A DNA stretch of 64,000 nucleotides from a virus. This document shows, in pieces, positions 13,586 through 63,587 of the stretch. The notes under the pieces were generated by a model. That model saw only the letters and a program-made list of their open reading frames with translations, had not been told where the DNA came from and searched no databases. The position numbers and the translations under genes were made by a program. Where the stretch lies: positions 3,866 to 67,865 of IMG/VR virus record IMGVR_UViG_3300036406_000522, one strand, 5' to 3'. The first letter of the stretch is position 1, and every line of letters begins with the position of its first letter.

Positions 13586-13620
13586 ACTGCGGAGTCAGTG
13601 GTATCTTATATGGTACAACA
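13586..13620 (+). promoter_or_regulatory. putative phage promoter, motif A copy 1
   Basis: ACTGCG-N8-GGTATCTTATATGGTACRACA repeated at 63553; both intergenic, upstream of an RBS. Confidence 0.65.
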
Positions 13621-14768: not shown

Positions 14769-14790
14769 GAACACTAAAAGTGTCTTAGTA

Positions 14791-14817
14791 AGAGGCATCT
14801 CACGAGGATGCCTTTTT
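14791..14817 (+). terminator. intrinsic terminator-like hairpin
   Basis: AGGCATC...GATGCCT followed by T tract. Confidence 0.6.
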
Positions 14818-14953: not shown

Positions 14954-14970
14954 TTCAACAAGGAGAAGCA

Positions 14971-15168
14971 ATGCTATACTACAGAAATAACAAGACAGGT
15001 GACGTTTACCGAGTCGAGGGTATTGTAACAAACGCAACGAACAGTGCAATGAGCATGAGAATGGTGCTCTACAAGAATGAATACAATGGTGCACAATTCG
15101 TTCGTGAGTACTTTGAATTCAAGGAGAAGTTTACCCGTTTACCAACCAGTCTAGGAGAGGACATATGA
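14971..15168 (+). CDS. small protein, DUF1653-like
   Basis: YRNNKTGDVYRV...MVLY...FVRE..EF.EKF pattern. Confidence 0.6.
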   Translation: MLYYRNNKTGDVYRVEGIVTNATNSAMSMRMVLYKNEYNGAQFVREYFEFKEKFTRLPTSLGEDI

Positions 15169-17056: not shown

Positions 17057-17061
17057 ATCAA

Positions 17062-17394
17062 ATGATCATTGCATTAGATTACGACGGAACATTTACAGAA
17101 GACCCCGCCTTGTGGACCACATTTGTGGACAATTGCATCAGTAAAGGCCATCGTGTAATAATGGTTACGATGCGTTTTGCTTCTGAGGGTATCGGCAGCA
17201 ACGAGCACATTGTAGGGCACGAGCATGTGTTCTATACGGGTCGTACAGCTAAGAAGCAATTCATGACGGCGTTAGGTATTCATCCGCATGTCTGGATTGA
17301 TGATCATCCGCAGTCAGTATTTATGGACGCGGAACAGATCTGGGGTGTGTCTCTTCCAGAGGGTCATACCGATTCACGAAACGCTGTAAGGTAA
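17062..17394 (+). CDS. HAD-superfamily phosphatase (small, capless)
   Basis: IIALDYDGT motif I, VTMR motif II, K and WIDD motifs. Confidence 0.8.
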   Translation: MIIALDYDGTFTEDPALWTTFVDNCISKGHRVIMVTMRFASEGIGSNEHIVGHEHVFYTGRTAKKQFMTALGIHPHVWIDDHPQSVFMDAEQIWGVSLPEGHTDSRNAVR

Positions 17395-17397
17395 GGT

Positions 17398-17673
17398 TTT
17401 ACGGCTCAGCCCCATACGAGGGTCTGAGAGGTGGCGATGGGAGATCAAACCATCAATTCGTACGGTACTACTTACCTGATGATAAGGGTATGATAGTGCA
17501 AGCTGTTGATTTTTAGCAGGGTGCTGGATACGGTGCCACTGTGAAAGTCAGCAACCTGTATTACATTCGGGAGGCCTATTGCTGAGCATACAGAGTCCTG
17601 CTAACTTAGTGAAACAGGAGGATTGGAGCATGAGCTATGGCTGTGCACCCCTGAGTGTAATATGGGTTGTAAA
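17398..17673 (+). ncRNA. putative ~275-nt structured RNA directly upstream of tRNA-Ile2
   Basis: Five helical domains incl. 21-bp helix 17551-71/17650-70 with several G.U pairs; no ORF. Confidence 0.6.
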
Positions 17674-17749
17674 GGCCCTTTAGCTCAATGGTTAGAGCAG
17701 AGGACTCATAATCCTTTGGTTGTCGGTTCGAGTCCAACAGGGGCCACCA
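17674..17749 (+). tRNA. tRNA with CAT anticodon, Ile2 (lysidine) type rather than Met
   Basis: Full cloverleaf GGCCCTT..AGGGGCC-A-CCA, loop CTCATAA; body resembles enterobacterial ileX. Confidence 0.9.
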
Positions 17750-17766
17750 TTTAACTAGGAGTAGAA

Positions 17767-18330
17767 ATGAAAGCCAATCTTGAGAATGATAGTTTCTTCC
17801 TGGATCTAGTCATCGACGGAATAATAGCAGTCGATGAGGATGGAAACGTAGTTAATAATCGTACAGGCAAGGCGATAGGTTTTATAACAGGCGGTTACAA
17901 GCGCATTAGTATGTTTGGGAGAACATGTGCAGTTAACCGGTTGGTTTACATGGTCTATGTTAATGAAAGTATCCCTGCCGGCTACTTAGTGAATCATAAG
18001 GATGGTAACAAGCTGCACAACCACCCTAATAATCTCAACCTTAAGACAGAGAGCGAAAACAACTCCCATGCGTATAGCGCAGACCTGCGCGAAATAAATC
18101 TGGAGCACCTTAGTACTATTTCTGGAGGTCATAGAAATGGTATGGCAGCGCTCAATACTGCGCAGGTCAGGGCTTACAGAGTACATTTCGACAACTCTGA
18201 GGTGACTATCGCAGATATAATAGCGGACTCTGGCCTGTCAAGGAAGGCAGTTGTGCAAATGCTCAACGCCAAAACATACACGGAGATACCGTATCGTATT
18301 TCGAGATCAACCAGAAAACACGGTTCTTAA
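17767..18330 (+). CDS. HNH homing endonuclease within the tRNA cluster
   Basis: VNRLVY, VNHKDGNKLHNHPNNL, ENNSHAY. Confidence 0.85.
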   Translation: MKANLENDSFFLDLVIDGIIAVDEDGNVVNNRTGKAIGFITGGYKRISMFGRTCAVNRLVYMVYVNESIPAGYLVNHKDGNKLHNHPNNLNLKTESENNSHAYSADLREINLEHLSTISGGHRNGMAALNTAQVRAYRVHFDNSEVTIADIIADSGLSRKAVVQMLNAKTYTEIPYRISRSTRKHGS

Positions 18331-18337
18331 CATGTGA

Positions 18338-18422
18338 TCGAGGGTGGAGAAATTGCTAGACTCAGCGTTCTTAAACAGCGCCGCCGCAAGGCATGCGGGT
18401 TGGAACCCCGTCCCTCGAACCA
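18338..18422 (+). tRNA. tRNA-Leu(TAA), class II, atypical elbow
   Basis: TCGAGGG/CCCTCGA-A-CCA; anticodon arm GCGTT-CTTAAAC-AGCGC; long variable arm; T loop TTGGAAC. Confidence 0.8.
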
Positions 18423-18430
18423 GGCACCAT

Positions 18431-18505
18431 TCCCCGTTAGCTCAGTGATAGAGCAATCGCCTTGTAAGCGATAGGTCGTCTGTTTGATCCAGACACGGGG
18501 AACCA
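18431..18505 (+). tRNA. tRNA-Thr(TGT), atypical elbow
   Basis: TCCCCGT/ACGGGGA-A-CCA; ATCGC-CTTGTAA-GCGAT; T loop TTTGATC. Confidence 0.85.
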
Positions 18506-18534
18506 TTTGATGTTCTTAATGAAGGGAGACAACG

Positions 18535-19161
18535 ATGCCAACCAAGCGCTGCAAACTGTGTAAGAAGGACAAGAGTTTTAGTGAATTCAGAAGAGCAGGA
18601 GAGACTGGCACCAGCAAAGACGAGGCGCGCTACTATACCGTCTTCTGCAATAAGTGCACTATCAGACTATCACAATGGAAACGACCAATAGATGGGTTGT
18701 GGCTATGTAAAGGCTGCAATCGCATATTACCAATTGATAAGTTTGTTAGTCAGTCGCACTGTTATGATTGCAGGAAAAGTAGCGGTGCTCTTGCCAGAAA
18801 GGTAGCGTACACTAAGATGCGAAGAGTGAAAAAGCCAGTAGCATCTCGTGATGAACAACGTAGATTAATGAAGAGGTATAACGAAACCCTTCATGACACC
18901 TATATCAAGATATTTCTATCGAACAAGTTTAAAATACCATTCAGAGACATGTCGCCAGAATTAATAGCCGCACAACGTGAGATCTTGAGACTGCAAAGAG
19001 CTATCGCAGTAAAGATGTGTGTCAAGCCTGCAACCATTGGTGTGTGGTCCTCTCTGCTCAGACGAGGTAGAACACCAAAATATGATATCAAGCATAAGGT
19101 ATCATTTAATTCCCTCAAAAATCTTGAGGATAACCTGTTCAAAATGATAGGAGTCGAATGA
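18535..19161 (+). CDS. basic protein with four CxxC pairs (Zn-finger, probably DNA-binding)
   Basis: CKLC, CNKC, CKGC, CYDC. Confidence 0.65.
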   Translation: MPTKRCKLCKKDKSFSEFRRAGETGTSKDEARYYTVFCNKCTIRLSQWKRPIDGLWLCKGCNRILPIDKFVSQSHCYDCRKSSGALARKVAYTKMRRVKKPVASRDEQRRLMKRYNETLHDTYIKIFLSNKFKIPFRDMSPELIAAQREILRLQRAIAVKMCVKPATIGVWSSLLRRGRTPKYDIKHKVSFNSLKNLEDNLFKMIGVE

Positions 19162-20506
19162 TGGCTAAGCAAGTGACGTTGGTAGTAGACGGTCTGTTCG
19201 CCCATACAATGGGTGTTCTTAAAGGTCGTATTAATCCGGTGCACGCTCTCGCAGCTGCTGCTATGGTAGACACGATGGTTCGCGCATCTGCAGAGGAGTC
19301 GAAGCACCAACGTTATCAGAAGAAGGTACCGAGAGTTAAGTTCTTCGATACAAACATCACAGAGCAGACAGCCGCACAAGCTGTGCAAGAGGTCGTCGAA
19401 CAAGAGGTTGAGACCCGAAAGGCGAAGGCATTGGCACGTAAGCTACTGAAAGTCGAATTGGAGACTAAGATGACAAAACCTGTCACGAATGCCTCAAGAA
19501 AAGTTATCACTAAGCGTAAGACCAATACAAAGGAGAAGTAAGCATGGCTGAATGTAAAGCAGCAGGTCGTCACAAGCGTTCGCCCGCAATGGCGACCTAC
19601 CGTAATGGCAATCGTGCCGACGTCAATAAGACGAAGAAGATGAAGCGTCACAAGCTCAAGATGGAGCGCCGCGCCAGTCATCTGACGAAGCGTTTCAATG
19701 AGCAGAAGCCGCAACGTGGTGATGCACGCCATTATCGTCGTGTTGGCATAAAGCCGCAAATCCCGATTGACCAGCAGGTTGTTGCATACCAACCGTCCAG
19801 GCCGCGTGAACATACCAGGATCCAGCGTAACAACATCAATCTGCATCAGGTTGGATTGGGTCGCGTAGCGTGAGTAGTCCTCGAAAGAGAGCCTCAAGGT
19901 TAAAAGCAGAACAAGCGCTGGAGACCTTGAGGCAGAAACTCATTCTTGCTGAAACGCAGTGTAACCTCTGGAGGACAGGCGCTGAGCTAATAGATGCACA
20001 GCTTAAGCAGCTCACCATCGAGGCTACAGCATTGCGTGATGAAGTAAAACAACTGAAGGGGAGGATAATTGGATGACAAGCGCAAAGACAATCAGGCCTG
20101 ACGATTGGATAACCCCACGGCCACTATGGAACGCTACTACAGGTAACAAGGGGCAGCACTTCGCAGAGAAGGTTCGTGTGTGGGATGTAGATCGACACGC
20201 TGTATGCGACACGGGAGTGCTACTCGAGGTTATGACACTCGATGGTTCCATGCGAAGGATGTCAGCTGCATGGTTCATGGACAAAGACGGTAAGGTATTT
20301 CATTATTAATGAATCTCACTCCAGAACTAAAAGCTAAGATCGACGAATTGGACTACGAGTCGTTACTCCGAAAGTGGCGATTCGCTGTCTGTGGAGCTGA
20401 ACTCTTCCAGGGAGCATCGGGAGAGTACTTCAAGCAACGCATGATTGAACTCAGGGATAAACATCCTGAGCCACATGTTGTATCAAAACGAGTAGGCTGG
20501 AATTAA
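19158..20506 (+). CDS. hypothetical ORFs (19158-19541; 19544-19873 very basic; 19870-20076; 20073-20309; 20309-20506)
   Basis: Coupled ORFs with RBS. Confidence 0.6.
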
Positions 20507-20523
20507 CCCTTAGGAGTAAGTGT

Positions 20524-20655
20524 ATGAAGAAGTACTTCATCATCCTTGCAGTGCTATTATCAGGCTGCGCAACAATCGATTCAATCTTCGGGCCACCTGT
20601 TGAAGGCCGTGAAGCTTACTGCAAGAAGTGGCCAGATGATCGGACATGTAAGTGA
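20524..20655 (+). CDS. 43-aa lipoprotein (not in the ORF track)
   Basis: AGGAG RBS; MKKYFIILAVLLSG/C lipobox; C-x3-P-x4-C. Confidence 0.7.
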   Translation: MKKYFIILAVLLSGCATIDSIFGPPVEGREAYCKKWPDDRTCK

Positions 20656-20813
20656 AATACTTGCTGGTGGTAGTGTTTCTACTATCAGGATGTGCATCAC
20701 AACCGTCAATTCTTACAGGCTCAGGTGTAGAAATGCCTGCACCAGCTCAATGGCAGAAGCTTTGCAACGACCGGCCTGAACTCGAGATATGTAAACCTGA
20801 GGTCGCCAAATGA
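20652..20813 (+). CDS. 53-aa lipoprotein (not in the ORF track)
   Basis: GTGA overlap; MKYLLVVVFLLSG/C lipobox; C-x3-P-x4-C. Confidence 0.7.
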   Translation: MKYLLVVVFLLSGCASQPSILTGSGVEMPAPAQWQKLCNDRPELEICKPEVAK

Positions 20814-21169
20814 AGTTCAGCGAACTAAAGGCAGTCAACAGTGAATTCAATCAATACACTTATGAAACAGAAATAGGTGATGACTGGACGCCAATTGACC
20901 TGACTCTCGACAAGGAAGATGATTGTGATAGTTATGCAACAGCCAAGGCTGAACGTCTCATCAAGATGGGTTGGTCTAAGTCTGCTCTCCGTATCGGCTT
21001 CTGTCGTACCGAAACAGGTGGTGGCCATCTAGTACTCCTGGTTGACTTCGAAGGTCAGACATACGTACTGGACAACCGCTTCGCACTACCAATGGAGTAT
21101 CAGTTGTTATCTTACACCTGGATTGGCTTTGGCCATATCGATACAGGTAAGTGGGAAATGGCAAAGTGA
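20810..21169 (+). CDS. transglutaminase-like cysteine protease (BTLCP/LapG, Peptidase_C93-like)
   Basis: L.AVN..FN, DWTP, DCDSYATAK (Cys), GHLVLLV (His), YVLDNR (Asp). Confidence 0.8.
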   Translation: MKFSELKAVNSEFNQYTYETEIGDDWTPIDLTLDKEDDCDSYATAKAERLIKMGWSKSALRIGFCRTETGGGHLVLLVDFEGQTYVLDNRFALPMEYQLLSYTWIGFGHIDTGKWEMAK

Positions 21170-21176
21170 TCTCTAT

Positions 21177-21244
21177 GAGACCCTATTCGGTGCCTTCGGG
21201 TGCTGGATAGGGTCTCTCCCCTTTTTTTTTTTTTTTTTTTTTTT
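21177..21244 (+). terminator. strong terminator: 18-bp stem, cUUCGg loop, T24 tract
   Basis: GAGACCCTAT..ATAGGGTCTC, then TCCC and 24 T (21221-44). Confidence 0.8.
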
Positions 21245-21326
21245 GTGCTCAGGTTACAAGACACTTGCATCGAACAAAGTCTATGAACCTTTTTCTGTAA
21301 CGAGGGTACCGCAAATCAAGCGGGGA

Positions 21327-21365
21327 ACTGTTAACTTATCCCCCATTCGCCTCCCCCCTTTATTA
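21327..21365 (+). promoter_or_regulatory. putative late promoter/regulatory site, motif B copy 1
   Basis: ACTGTTAACTTATCC-N3/4-TTCGCC-N-CCCCCCTTTATTA repeated at 51089. Confidence 0.65.
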
Positions 21366-21398
21366 CCTTACAGCTGCTAAGGGAGATGTCCCTAGCCT

Positions 21399-21480
21399 GT
21401 ACATAGGGGTGAACATAGAGATGTACACAGAGGTGAACATAAGGGTGTACAATAGGATGTCGCTAAGGTGACATAGGGGT
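21399..21480 (+). repeat. seven imperfect 11-12-bp tandem repeats
   Basis: GTACATAGGGGT GAACATAGAGAT GTACACAGAGGT GAACATAAGGGT GTACAATAGGAT GTCGCTAAGGT GACATAGGGGT. Confidence 0.8.
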
Positions 21481-21714
21481 GAGACTAATTATGATTGTAT
21501 CATTATAGATAGAGATATAAGGAAGTAACATAGAGAGGTACATTAAGGTGGCGAATGATCTGAAACAATTGAAATGCTCAAAGGATGTGGCATTGAGCGT
21601 GGGCATCTCAATTCTCTCAGGGGAAGTTGTAGGTAGAACGAGGGAGTGCAGTTATAGGAAGCACATGAAAGTGCCTGATACAGATGGGCTAACAAAACGC
21701 GAAAGGTATGCAGC

Positions 21715-22224
21715 ATGTCCGATATTCCGGAGAAAGTACCAGCTGGTCTGGCTCTGTCTGTGTCAATGGAAGAGCCACAACAACCAGCTTGGAAGGGTGG
21801 CAGCAAGAGTGGCAGTAGACACACAAAGCTTGCCTATAGTAAGGAGAGTATTCGTAAGCTGGAGAAGATCGGGTTTGATCCCCTTCTAGAGATGGTGTCA
21901 CTGTACAGGCGAGTGCGTAGCCAGATTGACAGGCAGGAGTTACTGCAAGAAGCACAAGACATCGCACGTGAGAATAAATTAGAGGGCCAGGTGAAGAACG
22001 GTTATTCTTCTATGGCGCTTGAAGGCTTTATGAATACCGCAAGCAAAGTGCTCTCCGACATGATACCTTACCGTTACGCTAAAGTGCCAGTGGAAGAGGC
22101 CGAGAAAGATGGAGCACCGCCACCGCTCATCATTGAGACAACTAAAGAAGGTGAGATGTTCATCATAGACCCATTGAACGAGTCTACGTATGCACAGGAG
22201 GAGGACTTCCGAAATGGCGATTAA
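21715..22224 (+). CDS. probable terminase small subunit
   Basis: Immediately upstream of terL; GFDPLLEMV...L.PYRYAK pattern. Confidence 0.6.
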   Translation: MSDIPEKVPAGLALSVSMEEPQQPAWKGGSKSGSRHTKLAYSKESIRKLEKIGFDPLLEMVSLYRRVRSQIDRQELLQEAQDIARENKLEGQVKNGYSSMALEGFMNTASKVLSDMIPYRYAKVPVEEAEKDGAPPPLIIETTKEGEMFIIDPLNESTYAQEEDFRNGD

Positions 22225-23548
22225 GCTGCATGCCACACAATCATTAGTGTACGAGGACTTATTCGTCAGGAAGGTGTGCAGGCATGCTGTAGCAGTCGCT
22301 TGTCGAGGATGGGGTAAATCCCATAAGGCAGCTGTGGCATCTATCTCTGCTGTATGGGAGTTGATGTCATTGCCTAAGTGGGTGCCCAATAAGAATGTTG
22401 CAATCATTGCGCCTACATATTCACAGGTAACTGACATTTACTTCCCATTGCTGATGTATCAACTCGGTATGGAGAAGTATGTTGTTAAGCACAGCAAGCC
22501 TGATGGCCGATTGTGGTTTCCAGGTAATGTCGAATTGAAGCTCATATCCTTTGAAGCAGTAGAACGCTTACGGGGTACTGGGCTTTACTTTGCTGTGAAT
22601 GATGAGCCTTCTTCATGGACAAAAGGTATTGGCTTTAAAGATGCATGGGAGAGTGTTATCGAGCCTTGTATCTCTACACGCTGGTCACCTAAACGTGCTG
22701 CTATTTATAATGCCCCTAGCCCAGGACGATCACTGACGATTGGTACACCTAAGGGATATAACTATCTCTATGACATGTACAATTTCCAAGAGGGTGACAA
22801 GCTATGGAAGTCCTATCACTTTGACTACACACAGTCACCACTACTAGACCCAGAGGAGGTCGAGCGTATTAGACATCGCGTCGATCCATTGTTCTTTAAT
22901 CGCGAATACCTTGCATCATTCGAGGATTCAGGTAATAGGATATTCTATTGCTTCAAGCGCAAAGAGCACGTGACTGACCAGATGGAGCCTTTGAAGGAGA
23001 ACGAAGATGTACATGTCGCGTTGGACTTTAACGTTGGCATTATGGCTGCTAGCATATGGGTTGTACGAGGCAACAAGGCGTTTTGTTTGCGTGAGTTTAA
23101 GGGACATCCTGATACGCAAACGTTCTGCGACGTACTACTAGAACTCTACAAAAAGAAAGGGCATCGTGTCATCATATATCCCGACCCTTCAGGTAACAGT
23201 CGCAAGACTTCTGCCCCTGTCGGAGTTACTGATTTCTCTATTCTGCGTAGCTGCGGTTTCACTGTACTAGCACATCAAGCTGCACCTAAGATTGTTGATA
23301 GTGTCAATGCTGTTAATAAGCACTTCAAGACTGCCGCTGGCGAGATCAATGCATATGTACATCCTTCGTGTAAGGGTGTTATTGACTCTCTAGAGAAGAC
23401 AGTCTGGGTAGATAACAATCCTGATACTGCAACAATTGATAAGTCAGAAGGTGTTGAACATTTCTCGGACGGTATACGTTACTTCTTTGAGTTCCGATTC
23501 CCTGTCCGCCCTGGTAATATTGTATCTGCGAGAGGATTTGCATTTTGA
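22214..23548 (+). CDS. terL: terminase large subunit
   Basis: Walker A RGWGKS, Walker B VNDE, IGTPKG, RNase H-like LDFN, YPDPSG, HFSDGIRY. Confidence 0.95.
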   Translation: MAIKLHATQSLVYEDLFVRKVCRHAVAVACRGWGKSHKAAVASISAVWELMSLPKWVPNKNVAIIAPTYSQVTDIYFPLLMYQLGMEKYVVKHSKPDGRLWFPGNVELKLISFEAVERLRGTGLYFAVNDEPSSWTKGIGFKDAWESVIEPCISTRWSPKRAAIYNAPSPGRSLTIGTPKGYNYLYDMYNFQEGDKLWKSYHFDYTQSPLLDPEEVERIRHRVDPLFFNREYLASFEDSGNRIFYCFKRKEHVTDQMEPLKENEDVHVALDFNVGIMAASIWVVRGNKAFCLREFKGHPDTQTFCDVLLELYKKKGHRVIIYPDPSGNSRKTSAPVGVTDFSILRSCGFTVLAHQAAPKIVDSVNAVNKHFKTAAGEINAYVHPSCKGVIDSLEKTVWVDNNPDTATIDKSEGVEHFSDGIRYFFEFRFPVRPGNIVSARGFAF

Positions 23549-24697
23549 TTAACAAACCTATGGAAGTGCTATTGGCACATCCGGAATACAAGACAGTGGA
23601 ATACATTGTCTCGCCTGATTATGTCATTCGTTGTACACGTCGTTTCAAGCGTGTGAAGCTGCGTGGCAAGGAGCTTTATCATGAGGACATCCTTGTGTCA
23701 ATGGGACAGCCTAACTACTTAGCCCGTCCTTTTATCAAGGCGTGTCAGAAGGCAGGTGAACCCTTCCCGATCAAGAGGCTGCGTACTAAGTTGTTCCCGA
23801 AAAAGAAGGCAAAGAAATGAACGAGAGCCTTCGCGACAAGATATGGCGTACTTGGTATTACTTCAAGCGTGACCTCGCTGAGTTTCCTAACTCGTTCTAT
23901 TCGTGGTTAGCATGGAAGTTGCCACGAGGTCTTGTATACTTCTGTGCAGTGCGTGTGTTCGCTCATGGCACAACAGGTGATTACAGCAAGACGCCTGCTG
24001 ACAAGCTTACTGTAACAGGTGCATTACGCAGGTGGGCTGAATGATTCTCTCTGCAGACCCTAGTAATCCGTACTATACACCTGACTATTTCGAGTACATC
24101 GTACGTTTCAATGGCGTGCCAATATCACACTGCATAACAGCAGACACAGATAAGGGCATTGCTATTGTCTATGATACGAACGAAGATGGTAATGTGATTG
24201 TAGCATTCGGCAGACCCCGTACTAAACAACTCAATGGTCATATCATGATCATTCGTAAAGATGGTAAACCTTCCCGTTACTCACACTGAAAGAAACAAAT
24301 GAAAATTCAAGTAGACAAGCACGATGTAGCAGCTGTAGCTGATGATGTCAAGATTACTATGACACTGCAAACCACTGAGGGCGAAGTTACTGTCACCTCT
24401 CCTGATGCTGCAGCAGGCACACCTGAGATCGCTACCGAAGAGATCAAGGCTGCCCAACAAGCTGAAGTACAGCGACAGGCCGAAGAAGCTGCTCATACCA
24501 TGGCTCTACTCGCTGGTGCACCGCAACGTGTGATCGTTCCTCTTGTTGGTGTCAGCATGAACAGCCTCGAGATGATTCCAAGCAATTGGACAATCCTTCC
24601 AGCTGATGGCGACAACATCGAGGCATACAACAATGCCACAGGACGTCGTTTCGTTGGCACGCACGTGGACTTCAAACAGATTCTTCGAGGTAAATAA
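23545..24697 (+). CDS. four hypothetical ORFs between terL and portal (23545-23820; 23817-24044; 24041-24289; 24299-24697)
   Basis: Coupled ORFs. Confidence 0.6.
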
Positions 24698-26271
24698 TGT
24701 CGACCGTACCTACCGCCCAACCACTGAAAGGTGTAGGTGAGCCTTGCGCTGCATATGAGAGTGTTGAAGAGTTATGGGAACGTAGCAGGGCTGTTTGTGG
24801 CGGCGAGAGGTACGTTAAAGCTGCTGATAATTACCTGGACGTTTTGACTTACTCGAACATGCTCATCCCGTTCTCACCGAACATGACACCTGAGCAGTAT
24901 GCCTTCTATAAGGCAGAAGCAGAGTTACCTGGTATTGTTTCTCAGTTCTCGAAGTTCGTTGTAGGTGGATTGCTACGTAAGCAGCCACACCTGGAGATGC
25001 CTAAGGGTGCTCCAGAAGAGGCTAAGCAATGGATACTCGATGACTTCGGTCAAGACTCTTCGCCACTCTCTGCGTTCCTTGATGTGGCACTTTGGGAAGA
25101 GATTCAGACGAGTCGTGCTTGGGTATATGTCGATTACCCTAATGTTCCTAACGCTGATAACCTCACGAAGGAAGAACAACTCGCATACAAGCCTTACCCT
25201 ATCTTGTGGAAGGCTGAGTCTGTCATCAATTGGAAGGTATCAACTGACGTCGTCAAAGGCACACAATCGCTCTCTATGGTGATTGTGAAGGGCTACGAAG
25301 AGGACTTCTCGAAGAACGAATTCCATGCTGAAATACTTGACACTCTGTGGGTACATGAGATCGTAGAAGGAAAGTACCAGATACGTAAGTTCCAGCATCG
25401 TGTTCCGACACAGACTGAGACTACACAAGGACAGACGAAGGTAGGCACAGGTCAGGGCAAGAAGTATGAGCTTGTCGAGACTATCGCTAATTTCCTTGTG
25501 GCAGGTAAGCCTCTGGACTTCATTCCAGCATGGCCTTTGAATGGCTCTATCGATGTCACCGAGCCTGTCATCATGGCGCTGGTTGATAAGGAAGTCAATC
25601 TGTACAACAAGCTTAGTCGTCGTAACCATCTGCTGTATGGTGCTGCTACGTATACACCTGTGTTGTCTACTAACGTTAGCGACGAGACGTTCCAAGCAAT
25701 TGTTGACGGTGGACTAGGCTCCTGGATTCGCCTTATGCAAGGTGATACAGCCTCGATCCTTGACACACCTACTGATGCTCTTAAGGACATGGAAGCCGCC
25801 ATCGCATCCGGAATCGAAGAGATGGCACGTATGGGAATACGTATGTTGTCACCTGAGAATGTTCAATCAGGTGTAGCATTAGAGATTCGCAATGCTGCTC
25901 AGGCTGCTCAATTAGGGACGCTCAACACGAAGGTCTCTAATGTGATGGCTGATGTTATTTGCTTTATGGTGAACTGGCGTTATGGTACAGCGTTTAAGTC
26001 CAATGAATTCGACTTCTCGCTTAGCGCTGACTTCAATCCTGCACCGCTTGGTGATGCATGGCTACGCCTCATTACTGAATGGTATAAGGAAGGCCTCATT
26101 CCGCGTACAACGTGGTTGGAAATCCTTAAGCACAATGACATTATTCCGCCTGACTACAACGATGAAGACGCTAAGGTTGAGATTACAGCTGATGACTTCC
26201 TGATGCCAAAGGAGCCGAAACAAGGCACGACTAAACCCTTGGAAGACGGCGTAATCGGTAAAGCAGAGTAA
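24697..26271 (+). CDS. portal protein (DUF4055-like)
   Basis: 524 aa after terminase; Y..YK.EAE, VDYP, AESVINW, QSGVAL blocks. Confidence 0.85.
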   Translation: MSTVPTAQPLKGVGEPCAAYESVEELWERSRAVCGGERYVKAADNYLDVLTYSNMLIPFSPNMTPEQYAFYKAEAELPGIVSQFSKFVVGGLLRKQPHLEMPKGAPEEAKQWILDDFGQDSSPLSAFLDVALWEEIQTSRAWVYVDYPNVPNADNLTKEEQLAYKPYPILWKAESVINWKVSTDVVKGTQSLSMVIVKGYEEDFSKNEFHAEILDTLWVHEIVEGKYQIRKFQHRVPTQTETTQGQTKVGTGQGKKYELVETIANFLVAGKPLDFIPAWPLNGSIDVTEPVIMALVDKEVNLYNKLSRRNHLLYGAATYTPVLSTNVSDETFQAIVDGGLGSWIRLMQGDTASILDTPTDALKDMEAAIASGIEEMARMGIRMLSPENVQSGVALEIRNAAQAAQLGTLNTKVSNVMADVICFMVNWRYGTAFKSNEFDFSLSADFNPAPLGDAWLRLITEWYKEGLIPRTTWLEILKHNDIIPPDYNDEDAKVEITADDFLMPKEPKQGTTKPLEDGVIGKAE

Positions 26272-26337
26272 CATTTCAGGGTGTCTACTACAGTGGGCAC
26301 TCTGGAGTTCTTATTCAATAACAACAAGAGGAGTTTC

Positions 26338-29300
26338 ATGAGCACTAATGCCAACACAGCCATCTACGATAAGCTTGTAGATCGCGCTGCTATGTTACGT
26401 CTATATGAGGAGCGTGTTGCCGGTAAGGTTACCACGATAATAGACGGGCACAAGGTTCGCATTATTGACATCATACTCGCTAACAAGGCGAAGATGACGC
26501 CTAAGATGCGGGAAGAGATAGACATACAGTTGCGCAAGACGTATGGTAACGCTTTCAATACAAGCTCTAAGTCGCTAATGGATTTGGTTAACGATCAGTT
26601 ATCCTACACATACCAGAAGATGGATAATGTGGTGGGTAAGATCTGGCGTACAGCCAAGCCTAATTATCGCATCTCAGAAGACATTGTGCTTAAACGCCCA
26701 TTGTATAATGATGTGACACTGATGGGTGGCTGGACGAGTGTTAGCATTGCAGAGCGCAAACGTCTCGAATCACTTATACGACGTGGTATCGCAGAGGGGC
26801 TAGATGAAAAAGCAATCGCATTGTCTGTTAGGGATGGTAATGTGTTCACCATATCTAAGCAGCAATCTATTGGCCTCGTCCGTACTGCTATTACGTCTGT
26901 TCGTTCACAAACAGATCATGAGGTGTACAAGGCAAATGAAAAGATTCTCACTGGCTGGCAGTATGTCGCTGTTCTGGACTCTCGTACGACGCCACTCTGT
27001 CAGCATCGTGACGGTACTGTGTATCCTATCAGTGATACTGCACATCTTCCTCCTGCTCACTGGTACTGCCGAAGTACTACCATCCCAATAACCAAGTCGT
27101 ATGACCAGCTTGGTGAACTCGAGGGTGTAGCACAGATACGTAAACGTAACTTGGAAGGGTTGACGCAGAAACAGATCGCCTTCTATGATGGACAAACTCC
27201 GTTAAAGGAGAGTTACAGCGAATGGTTACAGAGGCAGCCTACTGATGTTCAGCTAAGGCATCTTGGTGATAATACTCGACTAGAGTTATTTCGTAGTGGT
27301 CAACTAACCGTAGACAAGTTTACAACACCTGCTGGTAATTCTGTCGGCATCAATGAGCTACGTAGAATGACAGATGATGGCTACGGTATTGGTAATACGA
27401 AGAAATTCGCCATTGCTAAAGAGCAGCTAGACCGTCTTAAGCTAGGCGCAGCTAGGCCTGAAGAGCTAATAGACTCTCCTGATATGGTGGCTGCATTACG
27501 CAACTACTATATGCTGCAAGCCAAAGACCTTGATGGTAATCTGTCATTGACAAACTACCGAGGCAATCTGCTGCACACAAAGAAGGCTACTAAGGCGCGT
27601 GTATTGAACAGCCCTCCTACAGAGGAACAGTTATTGTTCAATCCATTAACAGGACGTTATGATGACAGCAGGATATTTCAACCGAATCAGGCTGTCTTAA
27701 AGAATAACCTCAGGTTAGTCGAAGACTCTGTTAGCTTAAAGAGAGCTGACAAGGATTTTATCAAGAAGTTTGTGGATGATCTAGATGGACATCTAGGTGC
27801 TAACGAACGAGCTGTTATAACTGACAACCTACGTATCGTGTTCACACGCTTCCGTGATAATAAGGAGCCATGGACGAATCTTAAGGCCGTTCTCAATGGT
27901 CAGATCAAGTTCGACATAATGAACGTTTCTGATTACATCGAGACACAGCTACGTCGTGACCAGAATTTCCTTCTCAAGCTGAAACAAGACATGTACATCG
28001 ATCCTGTCCTAGGGCCGGTGCAGCTACAAGACCTGCATGATAACTTCATAGCTAACATCAGGGCAAAGAACAAGTGGGAGGATAGTGTAGCACCGAAGAT
28101 CGCAAGAGAACTGCGCAACATCTTCGACTACAAGATTCCTTACAAGATCAGAACACGATTGAAAGAAGATGGAGACCATCAGTTAGACCAGTTCTACCTA
28201 CGATTTGCCAATAGATTAGCAATGGCAGATAGCCCTGATAGAGACCAACTCGCTGTTGCGCTAGGTCGTGATTTATACAATGCAGCAAACTATCGAGGCA
28301 ATAGGAAAGAATGGTGGCTCCTTGGTAACAAATTACTGGACAACGCTAAGGCTAAGGGTTTCTACGAGCTTGAAACGCGTGGTGTCCAAAAGAGACGAAT
28401 GCGAAGCCGCAATTTTGGGAAGTATTTCGGTCCTGCTTACGATACTAATTCTGTTGTGGTCGTCGTTCATGATCCTCGTATTCTTGAATACGCAAAGCTA
28501 ACTCGTAAGGTTGATGTAGGTCTGCGTGTGAGCGCAACTACAGAGCACAACAGGTTGCGAATCAGAGAGGGTTACAAGACGTACTTCACAGATGAAGGAC
28601 TATTCGGGTACTACGATACTCGCATCCCTATAATCTCTGAGTCGTCATTCAAGGACTTCCCTGAGAAGCTAATCGACAAGGACATGACGTCTGCACTAAA
28701 TTGGGCAGCTCAAACGAAATACAAGGTTGATCCTGACTTTCACGACTTCATTGACAAGTTACTTCACTTTACTGACGACAAGGGACGGGCTAAGTACTAC
28801 AGCGAGGTGAATCACTATCGCGAGTATATGAGTGGCCGTGGAGACGCGTATGAGAGATTCAAAGCAATGTCATGGCTTAGGGCTAAGGATAGTTCTTTTA
28901 GCAATCATCCTTTTCTCGACCATCGTGCACGTATCTATGAGAGAGGCTTCATCGGCCCACAGGCGGGTGAAAGCTTTAGGCCGTTCCTTAATAGTGCTGT
29001 ATCGAAAAAGTTTAATGAGCAAGGATACCTGAACCTTCAGGACCAGATTGGTGGCTTTATTGGTGGCCTCTCTGATAATCTAGAAGGAAAGTACAACGCA
29101 CTGTCTGTACTAGGTAGGCAAGAGATAGCTAAGAAACATAGACCAGAAATGGTCAAGATAGGTTATCACATGCTACGTGGTAAGCCTGCTGACATCCGCG
29201 CTGTCCTGGATTCGAAGTTCGTCCAAGAGATAGATGGCGAGGATTTAGGTAAGGCACTGCGTCTGTCGCTCGAAATGGCTAAGATAGATCGCTTCCTAGA

Positions 29301-30972
29301 TGGTGACTACTCTGATCTGTCAAAGCTCAAGGGTTACGATATTGCAGTCGCATTAGAGCAAGATGCCAGTTCTTCTGGTGCGCAGATCATCGCGTTAACT
29401 ACGAAGAATAAGCAGCTTGCTGAATTGTCTAATGTACTCGCAACGAATCAGAAGAAGCGGTTGTATGACGAAATCGCTGCACTTACTTTCAACGATCCTC
29501 GATTCATTAAGTTGAACCAGAAGCTTGGTTTGACTGAGAAGGATCTTCGGAAGGCAAGTAAGGCACAAAACATGGTCACATTCTATGGTGCAGGTCAACG
29601 CACTGGTGCTATGAATGTGGAAACAAAGCTGGCCAAGGCATTGGGAAAGAATGAAGGTCTGCTCGTTGTGAAAGCATCTGAGCGTGACAAAGTACTCGAT
29701 GAGATCGCTGCTAGAGCGGCGCGCTTTGAGAGATTCGATCCTGACACTGCATCTGAGCTAAAGGCTTTGAGACAAGATGTCAAGGATATCTTCAACCGAG
29801 GTGTAGATCCTGGTGATGACCTCTTAGAGGACTTATGGTTCCTAGAACCGAAGACCTACGAGTTCGTCGAGAAGCTATCTCGATCATACGATAAAGTTGT
29901 AACACCTAATGATTTCAAGCTTATTGCTGAGATCATGAGCGAAAATCTTGCTGTACAGGTTCCTATTCTTAAGGACTTCACACGTTACTTTGGTAGACTA
30001 GCTGAGGACTTCCTCACTAGTGCCAAGCCGAATGAAGCGTCCTTCGACGAAGCTAAGATCCTGCGGCAGATGCTTTTCGGTGCTTACAAGGCTGGCGACA
30101 AACTACCACCGCGTGTGGCAGAGTTGTTGGGTACAAAAGCCAGTGAATCAATCAGCGAGAAATTCCTTAAGCGTGTCCCTTGGTATAAACCAGGAGACTT
30201 ACTATCTGAAGTCATTTACGGTGTTAAAGCTCCATTGGACAGACGTACTGGCACTACACTTGGAAAGGTAAAGTTCAAGTTAGGTGCGATCGAAGAGACA
30301 CTCTACGGAGGCTTCGATGTACTGTATCCGAACAAGATGCCGAAACAATGGACGAACATCCCTTGGGTTAATTTTGATGGCAAGGTTATTGAACAGAATT
30401 TCACACAGGCGTTCGAAGAGCGATTAGTGTATCGTGATGCAAATGGTGATTGGGTGACCAACATCCTCATGATCAAACAGAAGACTGACCCTACGTGGTG
30501 GGAAGAGTTCAGAAACAAAACAGACACCATGAGGGACATTGCTGATGTAAACAAAGCTAGAACAGCCTTTGCCGTTAACGGAAACCATGCTAATGACGCC
30601 ACACTTGTGAAGCAGTATCATCTATGGGGACGTAAGAACAACATACCTACTGCTACGGTGCATGACGCGTTCATGGCCAACGCTGCCGATCTATTGAAGT
30701 CAAGGGATGCACTTAGGGAAATCTATGCGAATGTTCTGGATAAGAACGTTATCCTAGACACACTTAACGAAATGCGTGATAGAGGCTTGTCTAAGGAACT
30801 CTATGACAAGTATCTGAACGAAGCTATTGACATTGGATTGATACCTATCGCTGGTCGATCTGTTGTCGGTGGTAAGAAGTTACAAGAGAGTGATATTCTG
30901 AAGAAGAGCGATGTCTTAGTAAAGATAACGCACGACTTCAAGGGTAATCATTACTGGTACGGAATTGGATAA
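26338..30972 (+). CDS. head morphogenesis (MuF/SPP1 gp7) protein fused to a T7-family single-subunit RNA polymerase
   Basis: MuF: YVAVLDSRTTPLC..RDG...PPAHWYCRS; RNAP: LDHRARIY..GPQ, motif A EQDASSSGAQ, motif B RKASKAQNMVTFYG, NGNHANDA, motif C VHDAF; AGAGGAG RBS. Confidence 0.92.
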   Translation: MSTNANTAIYDKLVDRAAMLRLYEERVAGKVTTIIDGHKVRIIDIILANKAKMTPKMREEIDIQLRKTYGNAFNTSSKSLMDLVNDQLSYTYQKMDNVVGKIWRTAKPNYRISEDIVLKRPLYNDVTLMGGWTSVSIAERKRLESLIRRGIAEGLDEKAIALSVRDGNVFTISKQQSIGLVRTAITSVRSQTDHEVYKANEKILTGWQYVAVLDSRTTPLCQHRDGTVYPISDTAHLPPAHWYCRSTTIPITKSYDQLGELEGVAQIRKRNLEGLTQKQIAFYDGQTPLKESYSEWLQRQPTDVQLRHLGDNTRLELFRSGQLTVDKFTTPAGNSVGINELRRMTDDGYGIGNTKKFAIAKEQLDRLKLGAARPEELIDSPDMVAALRNYYMLQAKDLDGNLSLTNYRGNLLHTKKATKARVLNSPPTEEQLLFNPLTGRYDDSRIFQPNQAVLKNNLRLVEDSVSLKRADKDFIKKFVDDLDGHLGANERAVITDNLRIVFTRFRDNKEPWTNLKAVLNGQIKFDIMNVSDYIETQLRRDQNFLLKLKQDMYIDPVLGPVQLQDLHDNFIANIRAKNKWEDSVAPKIARELRNIFDYKIPYKIRTRLKEDGDHQLDQFYLRFANRLAMADSPDRDQLAVALGRDLYNAANYRGNRKEWWLLGNKLLDNAKAKGFYELETRGVQKRRMRSRNFGKYFGPAYDTNSVVVVVHDPRILEYAKLTRKVDVGLRVSATTEHNRLRIREGYKTYFTDEGLFGYYDTRIPIISESSFKDFPEKLIDKDMTSALNWAAQTKYKVDPDFHDFIDKLLHFTDDKGRAKYYSEVNHYREYMSGRGDAYERFKAMSWLRAKDSSFSNHPFLDHRARIYERGFIGPQAGESFRPFLNSAVSKKFNEQGYLNLQDQIGGFIGGLSDNLEGKYNALSVLGRQEIAKKHRPEMVKIGYHMLRGKPADIRAVLDSKFVQEIDGEDLGKALRLSLEMAKIDRFLDGDYSDLSKLKGYDIAVALEQDASSSGAQIIALTTKNKQLAELSNVLATNQKKRLYDEIAALTFNDPRFIKLNQKLGLTEKDLRKASKAQNMVTFYGAGQRTGAMNVETKLAKALGKNEGLLVVKASERDKVLDEIAARAARFERFDPDTASELKALRQDVKDIFNRGVDPGDDLLEDLWFLEPKTYEFVEKLSRSYDKVVTPNDFKLIAEIMSENLAVQVPILKDFTRYFGRLAEDFLTSAKPNEASFDEAKILRQMLFGAYKAGDKLPPRVAELLGTKASESISEKFLKRVPWYKPGDLLSEVIYGVKAPLDRRTGTTLGKVKFKLGAIEETLYGGFDVLYPNKMPKQWTNIPWVNFDGKVIEQNFTQAFEERLVYRDANGDWVTNILMIKQKTDPTWWEEFRNKTDTMRDIADVNKARTAFAVNGNHANDATLVKQYHLWGRKNNIPTATVHDAFMANAADLLKSRDALREIYANVLDKNVILDTLNEMRDRGLSKELYDKYLNEAIDIGLIPIAGRSVVGGKKLQESDILKKSDVLVKITHDFKGNHYWYGIG

Positions 30973-31025
30973 TGAGTTGTACTCATTAACATTTTAAATG
31001 GGCTGTGCCCAGGAGCTTTGAAATC

Positions 31026-31745
31026 ATGGCAATAAATCCGAATAAAGAAGATGGCACTCCTAAGACTACCGAAGAGATTGCGCTGGAACAAGCGGAATTG
31101 GATCGGCTGGAAGCTCTTAAGGGTGAGACAGAAGAACAGAAGATCGCTCGTCTAGTTCAAGAGGGAATCGAAGCTCAGATCAAGGGCCTCAAAGATAACC
31201 TCAACAAGGCTTACGAAATCCGAGACGCTGCTGAGAAGAAGCTCAAGGAGAAAGAAGCCGCTGAACGTGAAGCTGAAATCAAGCGACTTGAGGCCGAAGG
31301 TAAACACCGTGAGGTCTACGAGGCTCGTCTTGCCGATGCTGAAGTGAAGCGCAAGGAACTGGATGCAAAGAATGCAGAATTGGAACGTCGCAATACTGAG
31401 CTTACTCGGGATGCGAATGTGCGTGCAGCACTACAAGGACTGGATTTCAAGAACGATCGCGCAGCTGAGATGGCTTTTAAGGAAATCGCTGAAGGTCTTG
31501 TTCGCAACGATAAGGGCGAATGGGTACACAAGAGCGGTGTCACTATCAAAGACTTCATTGCTGCATATGTTGCTGATGACAATCAATCTTTCTTGTTCAA
31601 AACAAAAGCTAGCTCTGGCGGAGGTTCCGGTTCGGGACAAGGCAAGGGTGGGAATGATGGTGGCTCTGGCGACACATCGCTATTCGCCAAATCACAAGAC
31701 GAAGTGATCCGAATGGCTGCTGAAGGCAGACTGCCGCAACGATAA
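31026..31745 (+). CDS. capsid scaffolding protein
   Basis: Charged coiled-coil, Gly-rich C-terminus, directly before the capsid gene. Confidence 0.8.
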   Translation: MAINPNKEDGTPKTTEEIALEQAELDRLEALKGETEEQKIARLVQEGIEAQIKGLKDNLNKAYEIRDAAEKKLKEKEAAEREAEIKRLEAEGKHREVYEARLADAEVKRKELDAKNAELERRNTELTRDANVRAALQGLDFKNDRAAEMAFKEIAEGLVRNDKGEWVHKSGVTIKDFIAAYVADDNQSFLFKTKASSGGGSGSGQGKGGNDGGSGDTSLFAKSQDEVIRMAAEGRLPQR

Positions 31746-31763
31746 TACAACAAGGAAATATTT

Positions 31764-32963
31764 ATGAGTGCAACTAAGAGTGTAACTGGCGCAACTGATA
31801 CCGTTCTGCAATCGGCTATTGGTGCGTACTACGATGAAGCTTATACGAACGCGAAGAAGCTGGTCAACACCGGCATCACCGTGGCGAATTCGCAAATCGA
31901 TACTGAAACTGAGACCTTCATCGGTCAACTGCGTTGGGAAAAGCCGCTTACCCCGACCATTAACCTGGCCTCGCTTACTGACAGTACTGCTGGTACAGCG
32001 ACGACCTCCGACACTGAATTCCTGACATACATCAAGTCTGTCCGGACTGCAGGTGCTGAGAAGGTCAACATGAAGCAAGTTGTTACTCAGAAAGATGGTC
32101 TGGCCAAGTTCGGTCGTGACTTCGCTGAGACGCGTGCTCAAGACGAGCATAACGCCATTCTTGCAGTCTGCAAGGGTGTCGCTATTGCTGAGTTGCTGAA
32201 CGGTGCTGGCAAGGCCCAAGGCTCTAACGGTCTGGGTGGACAGACGTTTGACAACGACCCGACCGACAAGAAGTATGGTTTCTACGTCGATCTGGGCAAC
32301 GTGCTGCCGGTCATTGCTGCTTCGGCTACTGCTCAAGGTGCTGCCCGCGCTGAGGGCTTCCTGACTGCCATGGGTATGGCTTGGAAGGATTACGAGCCGT
32401 CGTATGCTTATCTGGTCGTCAGCCCCGCTGTCATGGCCTCGCTCCGTTCTGCCAATCTGGTGGATCAGGATAAGGTCAGCGAAGCTGGCATCGAGTTCAA
32501 CACGATCTTCCAGGGTAAGTTCCGTCTTATCTTGACTCGTGCTACTCAGAGCATGGCATCTGCCGAGTTCACCAAGATGAACACTGGTCCTGGCGTTGAT
32601 GTGGTCGGTACCAAGACGAGCTTCATCGTTCTTCCTGGCGCGATCAACTTCAATGCACTGAACGTGCCTGATCCCGTCGAAATCCAGCGCAATGCTGCTG
32701 CCTATAAGGGTGGTGGTTCTACTGCGATTTGGCATCGTTGGGGTTACATCGCTCATCCGGTCGGTTACAAGTGGGCTGGTAGCGAGAACGTGTTTGCTGA
32801 CGACGCTGCTTACAAGGCTGTTATCGAGAACGCTGTTCAAGTGGCGCTTACTGCCGCTACTGATGGCCTGGTCACTGGCACCCCTGCCTATGTTCAGTCC
32901 GTGTGGCAGCGCAAGTACAGTTCCGCGCTGAGCCTGGGCATTCTCCCGGTATTCCACGCCTAA
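31764..32963 (+). CDS. major capsid protein
   Basis: 399 aa, strong codon bias, position; HRWGY..HP.GY.W. Confidence 0.88.
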   Translation: MSATKSVTGATDTVLQSAIGAYYDEAYTNAKKLVNTGITVANSQIDTETETFIGQLRWEKPLTPTINLASLTDSTAGTATTSDTEFLTYIKSVRTAGAEKVNMKQVVTQKDGLAKFGRDFAETRAQDEHNAILAVCKGVAIAELLNGAGKAQGSNGLGGQTFDNDPTDKKYGFYVDLGNVLPVIAASATAQGAARAEGFLTAMGMAWKDYEPSYAYLVVSPAVMASLRSANLVDQDKVSEAGIEFNTIFQGKFRLILTRATQSMASAEFTKMNTGPGVDVVGTKTSFIVLPGAINFNALNVPDPVEIQRNAAAYKGGGSTAIWHRWGYIAHPVGYKWAGSENVFADDAAYKAVIENAVQVALTAATDGLVTGTPAYVQSVWQRKYSSALSLGILPVFHA

Positions 32964-63552: not shown

Positions 63553-63587
63553 ACTGCGCAAAATGAGGTATCTTATATGGTACGACA
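63553..63587 (+). promoter_or_regulatory. motif A copy 2
   Basis: ACTGCG-N8-GGTATCTTATATGGTACGACA right after a terminator and before an RBS. Confidence 0.65.

Follow-up and report, generated by a model that had tools for sequence, protein, structure and literature searches.

A MuF minor head protein fused to a T7-type RNA polymerase, a probable capsid-carried transcription enzyme of a lake-water phage

The window analysed here is a stretch of 64,000 nucleotides (nt), bases 3866-67865 of the 67,865-nt IMG/VR virus record IMGVR_UViG_3300036406_000522, which is also labelled G000 in our genome comparisons. Its head-gene module contains a single gene in which a MuF/SPP1 gp7-like minor head protein is fused to a T7-type single-subunit RNA polymerase (RNAP). 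By every sequence and fold feature tested, the product is a MuF protein as well as a T7-like polymerase. We propose that it is probably a polymerase carried in the capsid and ejected, which would start an N4-like relay of two polymerases. The MuF fusion, the late position of the gene and the two-polymerase layout together make this the most economical reading. Packaging, ejection and activity we infer from gene position and from published work on SPP1 gp7.

The fusion gene is a single open frame of 1544 amino acids (aa) with zero stops, so that the translation and the open reading frame (ORF) list bear out the uninterrupted 1544-aa ORF of the original prediction. The longest ORF in this frame runs from a GTG at 26281 to 30972 on the + strand and would give 1563 aa. 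We chose the ATG at 26338, 5 nt before which the ribosome-binding site (RBS) AAGAGGAG is located; alignments of the homologues begin at residue 1-4 of the protein that starts there. The gene and its parts are as follows (window positions; pLDDT, predicted local distance difference test score).

26338..30972, + strand: MuF-RNA polymerase fusion gene, intron-free; PF04233 and PF00940 both exceed their Pfam cut-offs
26338..27375, + strand: MuF / SPP1 gp7-like minor head domain, aa 1-346 (Pfam, PHROGs and BFVD matches)
27376..27402, + strand: flexible linker, aa 347-355, the lone segment with pLDDT <50 within aa 1-595
27403..28011, + strand: middle domain, aa 356-558, modelled confidently, mostly helical with two small hairpins
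28012..30969, + strand: T7-type single-subunit RNA polymerase, aa 559-1544 (~985 aa), N-terminal domain, then palm, fingers and thumb

Pfam RNA_pol (PF00940) matched the protein with 37.3 bits against a cut-off of 22, and PHROGs gave RNA polymerase phrog_414 at aa 1334-1484 (E 1.5e-15) and phrog_2051 at aa 998-1085 (E 7.5e-10). Pfam found no domain in the fusion protein beyond Phage_Mu_F and RNA_pol, and no peptidase. When a profile of 36 family members was compared with PDB, T7 RNAP was matched with an E value of 1.2e-29, mitochondrial RNAPs with about 1e-21 to 4e-22 (best E 4.1e-22) and N4 RNAPII with 4.1e-8; the N4 virion RNAP was not reached. A phmmer search of PDB with the single sequence gave a lone match at E 0.085, a dolichyl-diphosphate synthase subunit, which we rejected as not real.

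The original prediction had placed the polymerase in the C-terminal ~750 aa, had left ~450 aa between the two domains unrecognised and had suggested domain parsing with AlphaFold. An AlphaFold2 model of aa 351-1544 was obtained with a pLDDT of 83.1 and a predicted template modelling score (pTM) of 0.79. Foldseek with this model ranked T7 RNAP first (E 2.4e-18), and VIA-align laid model residues 209-1194, which correspond to aa 559-1544 of the protein, onto T7 residues 28-883 with Z 29.3 and a root-mean-square deviation of 5.1 (561 aligned). The yeast and human mitochondrial enzymes gave Z 25-27 and the N4 virion RNAP in its mini form (mini-vRNAP) Z 18.9. According to both programs, the predicted model contains the whole T7 fold including the N-terminal promoter-binding domain. 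Because the T7 alignment begins at aa 559, most of the supposedly unrecognised residues are polymerase N-terminal domain, and only aa 356-558 stay outside the assigned domains. The polymerase is therefore where it had been placed, with a larger extent than was claimed for it, and in the model it thus appears complete, N-terminal domain included.

The landmarks of T7 RNAP had been said to occur in order with the catalytic residues intact, and each was recovered at its place: DxRxRxY as DHRARIY at aa 861-867 (nt 28918), with D861, R863, R865 and Y867 all present; the motif A aspartate D1009 (nt 29362); motif B as R1071..K1075..Y1083-G1084 (from nt 29548); VNGNHANDA at aa 1413-1421, which contains H1417 and D1420; and motif C as H1442-D1443 (nt 30661). 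A hidden Markov model (HMM) alignment pairs them with T7 D421/R423/R425, D537, H784 and H811-D812, the T7 numbers being those of that alignment. In an alignment of 27 sequences, counting at each position the sequences that have a residue there, conservation was 27/27 for D1009, 26/27 for K1075, 23/24 for Y1083, 21/24 for H1417 and 24/24 for both D1420 and D1443. The aspartates of motifs A and C, the Lys and Tyr of motif B and the DxRxRxY element are thus present and conserved family-wide. Judged by these residues, the polymerase is catalytically intact and apparently active.

At the other end of the protein, the first ~350 aa had been called MuF/SPP1 gp7-like, which was confirmed for aa 1-346. 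Phage_Mu_F (PF04233) matched aa 143-249 with 51.2 bits (cut-off 29.6), and the head morphogenesis family phrog_241 matched aa 1-345 with an E value of 1e-60. The domain carries the motifs LDSRTT..C (213-221) and PPAHWYCRS (238-246), and T217, P238 and W296 are invariant in the 27-sequence alignment. A predicted model of aa 1-600 (pLDDT 86.2) contains the MuF domain and another folded domain, with a disordered linker between them; aa 596-600, at the end of this model, also have pLDDT <50. Compared with BFVD, the model gave 87 matches at E<=0.001, of which the named ones are MuF, head morphogenesis or minor capsid proteins, and the best is a 1463-aa protein equal in length to the orthologue of the roseophage DSS3_VP1. 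The same model found no match in PDB with Foldseek at E<=0.001, and VIA-align against 48,161 chains returned helical-bundle rows only, the best of them (Z 11.0) a designed repeat protein. The middle domain, which lies outside the structural alignment with T7 RNAP, is kept in 26/26 aligned relatives at 15-60% identity.

The fusion is not peculiar to this record. A word-indexed search returned 367 near-length homologues (E<=1e-3, 849-2702 aa), and the survey of MuF and RNA_pol architectures that had been suggested showed both PF00940 and PF04233 in 110 of the 120 best homologues, the remaining 10 being shorter pieces. A phmmer search with aa 351-1544 against 1.84 billion representatives gave 155 clusters at 50% identity (E<=0.001). 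Among the best 150 of these 155, all those >900 residues long align the polymerase part far inside, from about residue 630-730, and therefore have a long N-terminal extension too. Of 27 diverse full-length members (17-61% identity), 26 have a MuF domain according to Pfam, and PF00940 matched 20/27 relatives with a best E value of 5.6e-38. All four regions of the fusion protein are present in the aligned relatives and diverge in step. By these sequence comparisons, the MuF-polymerase fusion is old and widespread.

Four of 50,697 phage records cover >=80% of the fusion protein, namely EBPR siphovirus 1 (56% identity) and the cultured roseophages DSS3_PM1 and DSS3_VP1 (29%; two DSS3_VP1 records), which are assigned to a family spelled Naomviridae in the records. 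Megablast of the fusion gene against the same 50,697 records gave no match. Annotations call the relatives 'head morphogenesis', 'minor head protein-like' or 'SPP1 gp7 family' proteins, and the commonest name among the source-named best homologues is 'SPP1 gp7 family putative phage head morphogenesis protein'. The name 'DNA-directed RNA polymerase' is given to 1/120 of the best near-length homologues, a 1096-aa UniRef entry, and one shorter homologue fragment carries a polymerase-subunit name. The guess that similar fusions may already be annotated was therefore right in that relatives stand in the databases, and wrong in that they are named as head proteins. We found no published description of a MuF-polymerase fusion in the literature searched.

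Although the gene is intron-free here, many orthologues are interrupted. Among 24 whole-gene loci, 15 are uninterrupted and nine interrupted, and interruptions were also seen in 8/27 truncated loci. Rfam identified 22 group I introns in the nine loci searched. The breaks recur at aa 244, 697, 880, 1010, 1073-1083, 1105, 1342, 1418 and 1442, which coincide with the MuF HxxC motif and the neighbourhood of D1009, motif B, H1417 and motif C. Group I introns typically sit at conserved, indispensable codons, so their position at catalytic codons here is the usual signature of such codons. Some orthologues are found in up to six pieces (IMG/VR loci L041 4844-13535, L048 5924-14615, L036, L038, L049 and L045), and that of EBPR siphovirus 1 is split into head protein gp47, HNH endonuclease gp48 and hypothetical gp49. 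In the window, Rfam found two tRNAs only and no intron or further RNA family. Some relatives (homologues P0051, P0085, P0103, P0104, P0109, P0114 and P0121) have lengths of 1626-1699 aa, and their best local alignment covers only 74% of the polymerase query; inteins, read-through introns or other in-frame insertions may account for this.

The gene lies in the portal-MuF-scaffold-capsid slot described in the original prediction, both here and in every relative with flanks. Its neighbours are as follows.

24697..26271, + strand: portal gene (phrog_145, E 1.5e-52), directly 5' of the fusion gene
31005..31745, + strand: scaffold gene, directly 3' of the fusion gene; phrog_206/phrog_247 are the evidence for the scaffold and major head pair
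31764..32963, + strand: major head protein gene, on the same phrog_206/phrog_247 evidence

Like known MuF genes, the fusion gene thus follows a portal gene, which ends at 26271, 5' of the fusion start at 26338, and the relatives are alike. A portal gene lies 5' in 27 of 51 related IMG/VR loci, the others ending at a contig edge, and scaffold/head genes lie 3' in 42/51. Wherever one of the 51 loci extends past the gene, the order is portal, fusion gene, scaffold, major head protein, adaptor; no alternative order was found among them, and DSS3_VP1 has an identical portal-fusion-scaffold-major head order. Downstream of the major head protein gene are a head-tail adaptor, a major tail protein and a 2421-aa ORF of tape-measure size, and upstream of the head module are replication and nucleotide genes (exonuclease, primase/helicase, ribonucleotide reductase, ligase) with two HNH endonucleases. 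All large ORFs of the window are on the + strand. No integrase was detected among the ORFs scanned, which are part of the set, and the phage looks lytic. The genes scanned from terminase to tail include no head protease.

The MuF domain is presumed to dock onto the portal. A complex prediction for the portal with MuF aa 1-350 scored 0.59 (runs 0.59, 0.62 and 0.00), the best of three controls scoring 0.00. The mark applied is passed by 58/80 solved complexes and 2/110 mismatched pairs, and scores <=0.60 were given by 7/80 solved complexes and by both mismatches that passed; these benchmark counts hold roughly, since custom alignments were used. Contact agreement between the runs was at least 0% and partner pLDDT at least 79. 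The prediction thus lends weak support to a portal-MuF contact.

The sequencing runs agree with one continuous gene. Contigs of two lake-water DNA runs cover window positions 21255-32000 with 0 differences, gap-free and joint-free, so the two separate genes that would have spoken against the fusion are not seen; the two runs are not independent, because they are possibly the source samples. All sampled words of the stretch are present in 22 lake-water DNA runs, maybe from one campaign and maybe including the source. Freshwater metatranscriptome contigs identical to the window lie at six spots of the fusion gene, from 27632 to 30750, where DNA carry-over is possible. The runs consist of contigs, from which transcript starts, ends and levels cannot be read; the two RNA runs are one sample, and the bulk of the fusion gene is free of RNA-library contigs, which is uninformative.

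The relatives also encode a second, stand-alone polymerase. A separate ordinary T7-like polymerase was found in 5/7 related records. In DSS3_VP1 it is gp080, a stand-alone RNA polymerase of 732 aa (PF00940, E 1.3e-82) located after the run of small genes 3' of the structural module, ~4 kb before the DNA polymerase. All four relatives whose records were searched (94-100% complete) have a second canonical RNAP (E 6.2e-67 to 8.1e-26; two are split). The resemblance between the second and the fused enzymes is remote, with 27% identity over 86 aa (E 3e-4). EBPR siphovirus 1, whose record is a partial sequence, shows the split fusion gene and no second enzyme. The presence of the second enzyme in the relatives argues for a two-polymerase relay and not for one enzyme that does everything.

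In the present record the fusion protein is the sole MuF match and the sole RNA polymerase detected; no second one was found with PF00940 at E<=1 or with gp080 at E<=10. The closest relative, G002, has a fusion protein 73% identical and a genome of 75,242 nt compared with 67,865 nt here. When both record ends (G000:1-209 and window positions 63603-64000) are compared with G002, the start of our record maps to G002 position 4344 (in gene orientation), and its end stops 3.7 kb short of the G002 end. Since the second polymerase gene of G002, at about 1.1-3.1 kb, falls in the part missing here, we read its lack in our record as truncation and not absence. The missing part, with which the difference in length agrees, is ~7-8 kb of the early region, a gap hidden by the CheckV estimate of 98% completeness. 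By this comparison the phage would also have a second polymerase, encoded in the missing ~7-8 kb.

The original prediction had named a motif A as the probable site of the fused polymerase. This is a real element, conserved and multi-copy in five genomes: a bipartite motif of ~27 bp, ACTGCG-N8-GGTATCTTATATG, found on the coding strand in 5/5 genomes tested. The window has two copies.

13586..13620, + strand: motif A copy 1, ACTGCG, 8 nt, GGTATCTTATATG, ahead of a block that opens with ORF 13581-14243
63553..63587, + strand: motif A copy 2, after a hairpin plus T-run and 16 nt before AAAGGA and ATG

Their cores start at 13600 and 63567, whereas by chance none would be expected. In G000 to G004 the 13-nt core GGTATCTTATATG (<=1 mismatch) has 2, 2, 4, 5 and 5 copies, always on the coding strand, and reversed-pattern controls gave 0. 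The 18 aligned sites read tGCG, ~8 nt, then (G/A)GTATCTTATATG(A/G). Most of them are followed, 15-60 nt further on, by a purine-rich stretch that resembles an RBS and by a start codon, as read from the flanks, and several follow hairpins. Copy 1 is syntenic, in mid-genome, with copies in G002 and G003. Copy 2 heads the small-gene (early) region, and the record stops 413 nt further on; G002 has a motif at the syntenic place and two more copies in the part that our record lacks. In G001 and G003 the motif is found 1.9-3.3 kb 5' of the domain match of the second polymerase, and copies of G002 and G004 are likewise 5' of it if the records are circularly permuted. The copies are thus concentrated at the front of the small-gene region, which runs on to the gene of the second polymerase. 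The 18 sites, as we read them, do not fit the spacing of sigma-70 promoters. As a phage-polymerase promoter, motif A is a strong candidate. It lies upstream of the gene for the second polymerase, and this location speaks for the fused enzyme, presumably the delivered one, as the polymerase that would read it.

Other repeated elements were also examined. The core of a second motif of the original prediction, motif B (CTGTTAACTTA), has 4 copies here, 0, 1, 1 and 0 in the four relatives and one in other loci; no link to either polymerase was found. The element ACTGTTAACTTAWCC, at window positions 213, 13532, 21327 and 51089 (three exact copies and one with 2 mismatches), stands ahead of the terminase and fibre blocks and is not conserved in the four relatives. 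An RNA-library contig begins at 13556, 10 nt past the copy at 13532-13546; contigs cannot show a start. A sigma-70 scan of 13000-27000 gave 21 sites compared with 19.8 expected, which is uninformative. In DSS3_VP1 no repeated motif was found upstream of gp080. The 19-mer AAATAGGGTGCGTTAAAGA has three copies within 650 nt just 3' of gp080 (L070 9925-10568) and may be a promoter class of this stand-alone polymerase.

In the mechanism we propose, the fusion protein would be produced late, together with the head genes, and its MuF domain would bring it into the capsid at the portal. At the next infection it would exit through the tail with the DNA, and the polymerase would transcribe the first genes from the ~27-bp class ACTGCG-N8-GGTATCTTATATG, host RNA polymerase not being needed. 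The early genes would lead to the second, ordinary T7-like polymerase gene, whose product would take over middle and late transcription. Such a relay would resemble that of N4, assembled from different parts. In SPP1, according to passages of a published account, the portal strongly binds gp7, so that a few copies enter the procapsid, and gp7 helps to start infection (PMC6316719); MuF is also described, in part of another work, as a known hub for fused effector enzymes (PMC5512222).

Several points weigh against this proposal. An RNA-library contig (13556-14291) spans the motif copy at 13586-13620, and the transcript therefore began further upstream, if the contig is RNA. Motif A could, alternatively, be used by a regulator or by the second polymerase. 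With no second polymerase visible in this record, the relay here rests on the comparison with a relative. The portal-MuF complex prediction was weak, one of its three runs giving 0.00. The protein has 175 kDa, and a folded polymerase of that size would need to pass through a siphovirus tail. For the MuF-fused toxins, delivery by the gp7 route is called only 'proposed' in the relevant passage of PMC6316719. The main texts of the DSS3 phage papers, as searched, mention no RNA polymerase, MuF or minor head protein (PMC8323127, PMC12697855); virion proteomics does not appear in the main text of the former, nor the word 'virion' in that of the latter. For all members of the family alike, virion incorporation, ejection and activity are what we infer.

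An unlikely alternative is that the enzyme is a cytoplasmic middle or late polymerase that is never delivered, perhaps cleaved from MuF, the shared ORF serving co-expression or MuF alone being encapsidated. The gene does sit in the late module, processing could take place in the linker at aa 347-355, and a second repeated motif heads both structural blocks of the record. The relatives, however, already own a separate canonical polymerase among their early genes, and no head protease was seen among the genes scanned from terminase to tail. Co-expression alone would need neither the fusion nor the middle domain, both of which are kept in 26/27 relatives down to 17% identity, and a polymerase encoded inside its own target operon cannot start that operon.

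It is also doubtful that a packaged and ejected enzyme would have as its main job pulling the genome in by transcription, or making replication primers. Genome entry of T7 and N4 is partly transcription-driven, and the polymerases of T7 and mitochondria prime replication; with the genes all on one strand, one polymerase starting from the entering end could draw in the whole genome. Yet the phage encodes its own primase/helicase, the motif copies precede ribosome-binding sites and genes and are not confined to one end, and genome pulling is compatible with a relay started by an ejected polymerase, as it yields early transcripts anyway.

That the polymerase part is an inactive relic, now a DNA-binding or structural head protein, seems very improbable. 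The Pfam score of 37.3 bits is modest, and the title of a reference in PMC6316719 calls SPP1 gp7 DNA-binding, but the catalytic aspartates, the Lys and Tyr of motif B and the nucleoside triphosphate-site His and Asp are preserved family-wide, the entire T7 fold is predicted confidently, and introns home to catalytic codons. An assembly or frameshift artefact that joined two genes, in favour of which nothing was found, can be dismissed for practical purposes, since 15/24 related whole-gene loci are uninterrupted, 22 DNA runs hold all sampled words and the contigs of two runs are identical over 21255-32000 without joints.

Like N4 gp50, the fusion protein carries a T7-superfamily single-subunit polymerase and is encoded among late or virion genes. 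The N4 virion RNAP, as passages of several papers describe, is carried in the capsid, ejected, and transcribes early genes including a second polymerase (PMC5512222, PMC13434306, PMC13492108). The relatives of the present phage likewise have two polymerases, delivery being deduced here from the genes. In the part of PMC5512222 that treats it, N4 gp50 is a protein of ~3500 aa with its own N- and C-terminal regions for injection and encapsidation, always fused to a zincin peptidase domain, and N4-like virion RNAPs are confined to N4-like phages (Iyer et al., PMC5512222). N4 is a short-tailed phage with a giant protein, whereas here a protein of 1544 aa in a long-tailed phage would use MuF as its capsid tag. 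In place of a mid-protein polymerase and a zincin C-terminal region, the fusion protein has a C-terminal polymerase and no peptidase, and in structure its polymerase resembles T7 (Z 29.3) more than N4 mini-vRNAP (Z 18.9). By size, domain order and missing peptidase we rejected membership of the N4 family, as had been foreseen when N4 was said to use a different architecture.

With SPP1 gp7, Mu F and MuF-fused effectors such as the MuF polymorphic toxins and MuF-ART, the fusion protein shares the N-terminal Phage_Mu_F domain, a portal-adjacent gene and a C-terminal cargo. The cargo is here a 985-aa polymerase for the phage's own expression and not a toxin; a C-terminal toxin with an immunity gene was not found, the next gene being the scaffold gene, and a MuF toxin was therefore rejected. 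Among the MuF fusions discussed in the available passages of PMC5512222 there is no polymerase cargo, and the word 'polymerase' has 0 occurrences in the available text of the MuF toxin survey PMC5576092.

Like T7 RNAP and POLRMT/Rpo41, the fused polymerase has the common fold from N-terminal domain to C-terminus and the common catalytic motifs. The T7 enzyme, in contrast, is a free early protein of 883 aa made by host polymerase, whereas the fused enzyme stands behind ~560 extra residues, is late-encoded and forms a separate sequence clade. The long-tailed Thermus phage P23-45 offers another likeness, since parts of one report describe a virion polymerase fused to a structural protein and a second, non-virion polymerase (PMC10770324). 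Its carrier is a tape-measure protein and its enzyme a two-barrel one of cellular type, in contrast to the head-protein carrier and T7-type enzyme here.

To our knowledge, few architectures of virion-carried RNAPs are known, namely those of N4-like podophages, multisubunit phiKZ/AR9-type jumbo phages and crAss-like phages, and the tape-measure fusion of P23-45. If the proposed delivery is true, a T7-type enzyme on an ordinary MuF head protein would add a simple and modular route, and MuF would be able to carry a 1000-residue enzyme that serves the phage itself rather than a toxin. We regard it as an even question whether this is a third, independently evolved phage route in which a MuF-tethered T7-type polymerase leaves with the leading DNA end, reads the ACTGCG-N8-GGTATCTTATATG class and turns on both the early genes and a second T7-like polymerase that is free. 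Infection would then normally begin in this way in a large group of uncultured phages of lakes and oceans, among them the Naomiviridae with deoxyuridine (dU)-DNA, and the enzyme may help to draw the genome in. Such delivery would explain how transcription starts in the dU-DNA Naomiviridae. With 367 near-length homologues and 155 clusters at 50% identity, the family is large; it is common in lake-water metagenomes, and as it includes cultured roseophages the idea is directly testable at the bench. These proteins also constitute a new group of compact polymerases for which a candidate promoter is defined, and for annotation they mean that hundreds of 'head morphogenesis proteins' conceal a polymerase.

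The replication module at window positions 117-5910 has the order found at 51223-57859 of DSS3_VP1: exonuclease, phrog_447 'NAD synthetase'-like, primase/helicase, ribonucleotide reductase. Because this order is common to a dU-DNA roseophage, the phage looks like a distant freshwater relative of the Naomiviridae. An ORF that lies just outside the window, beside DNA polymerase A (G000:209-949; the polymerase at 965-2866), matches PF18909, a dATP/dGTP diphosphohydrolase N-terminal domain, with 79.5 bits, a hint of nucleotide-pool editing or modified DNA.

A freshwater metatranscriptome contig with a depth of 7.6 is identical to window positions 17418-17639, a highly paired region before the tRNA at 17674, which fits the structured RNA that had been predicted there. 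ARAGORN reports three tRNAs (Met/CAT, Leu and Thr), of which Rfam at its gathering score gives two, missing tRNA-Leu; the window positions concerned are 18338-18422. Eight diverged copies of a ~250-nt repeat with the core GATGCGGATTGAT lie at 58317-60108, within a 910-aa ORF (58005-60737), and the repeat is, by its sequence, a repeated domain of a tail-fibre-region protein.

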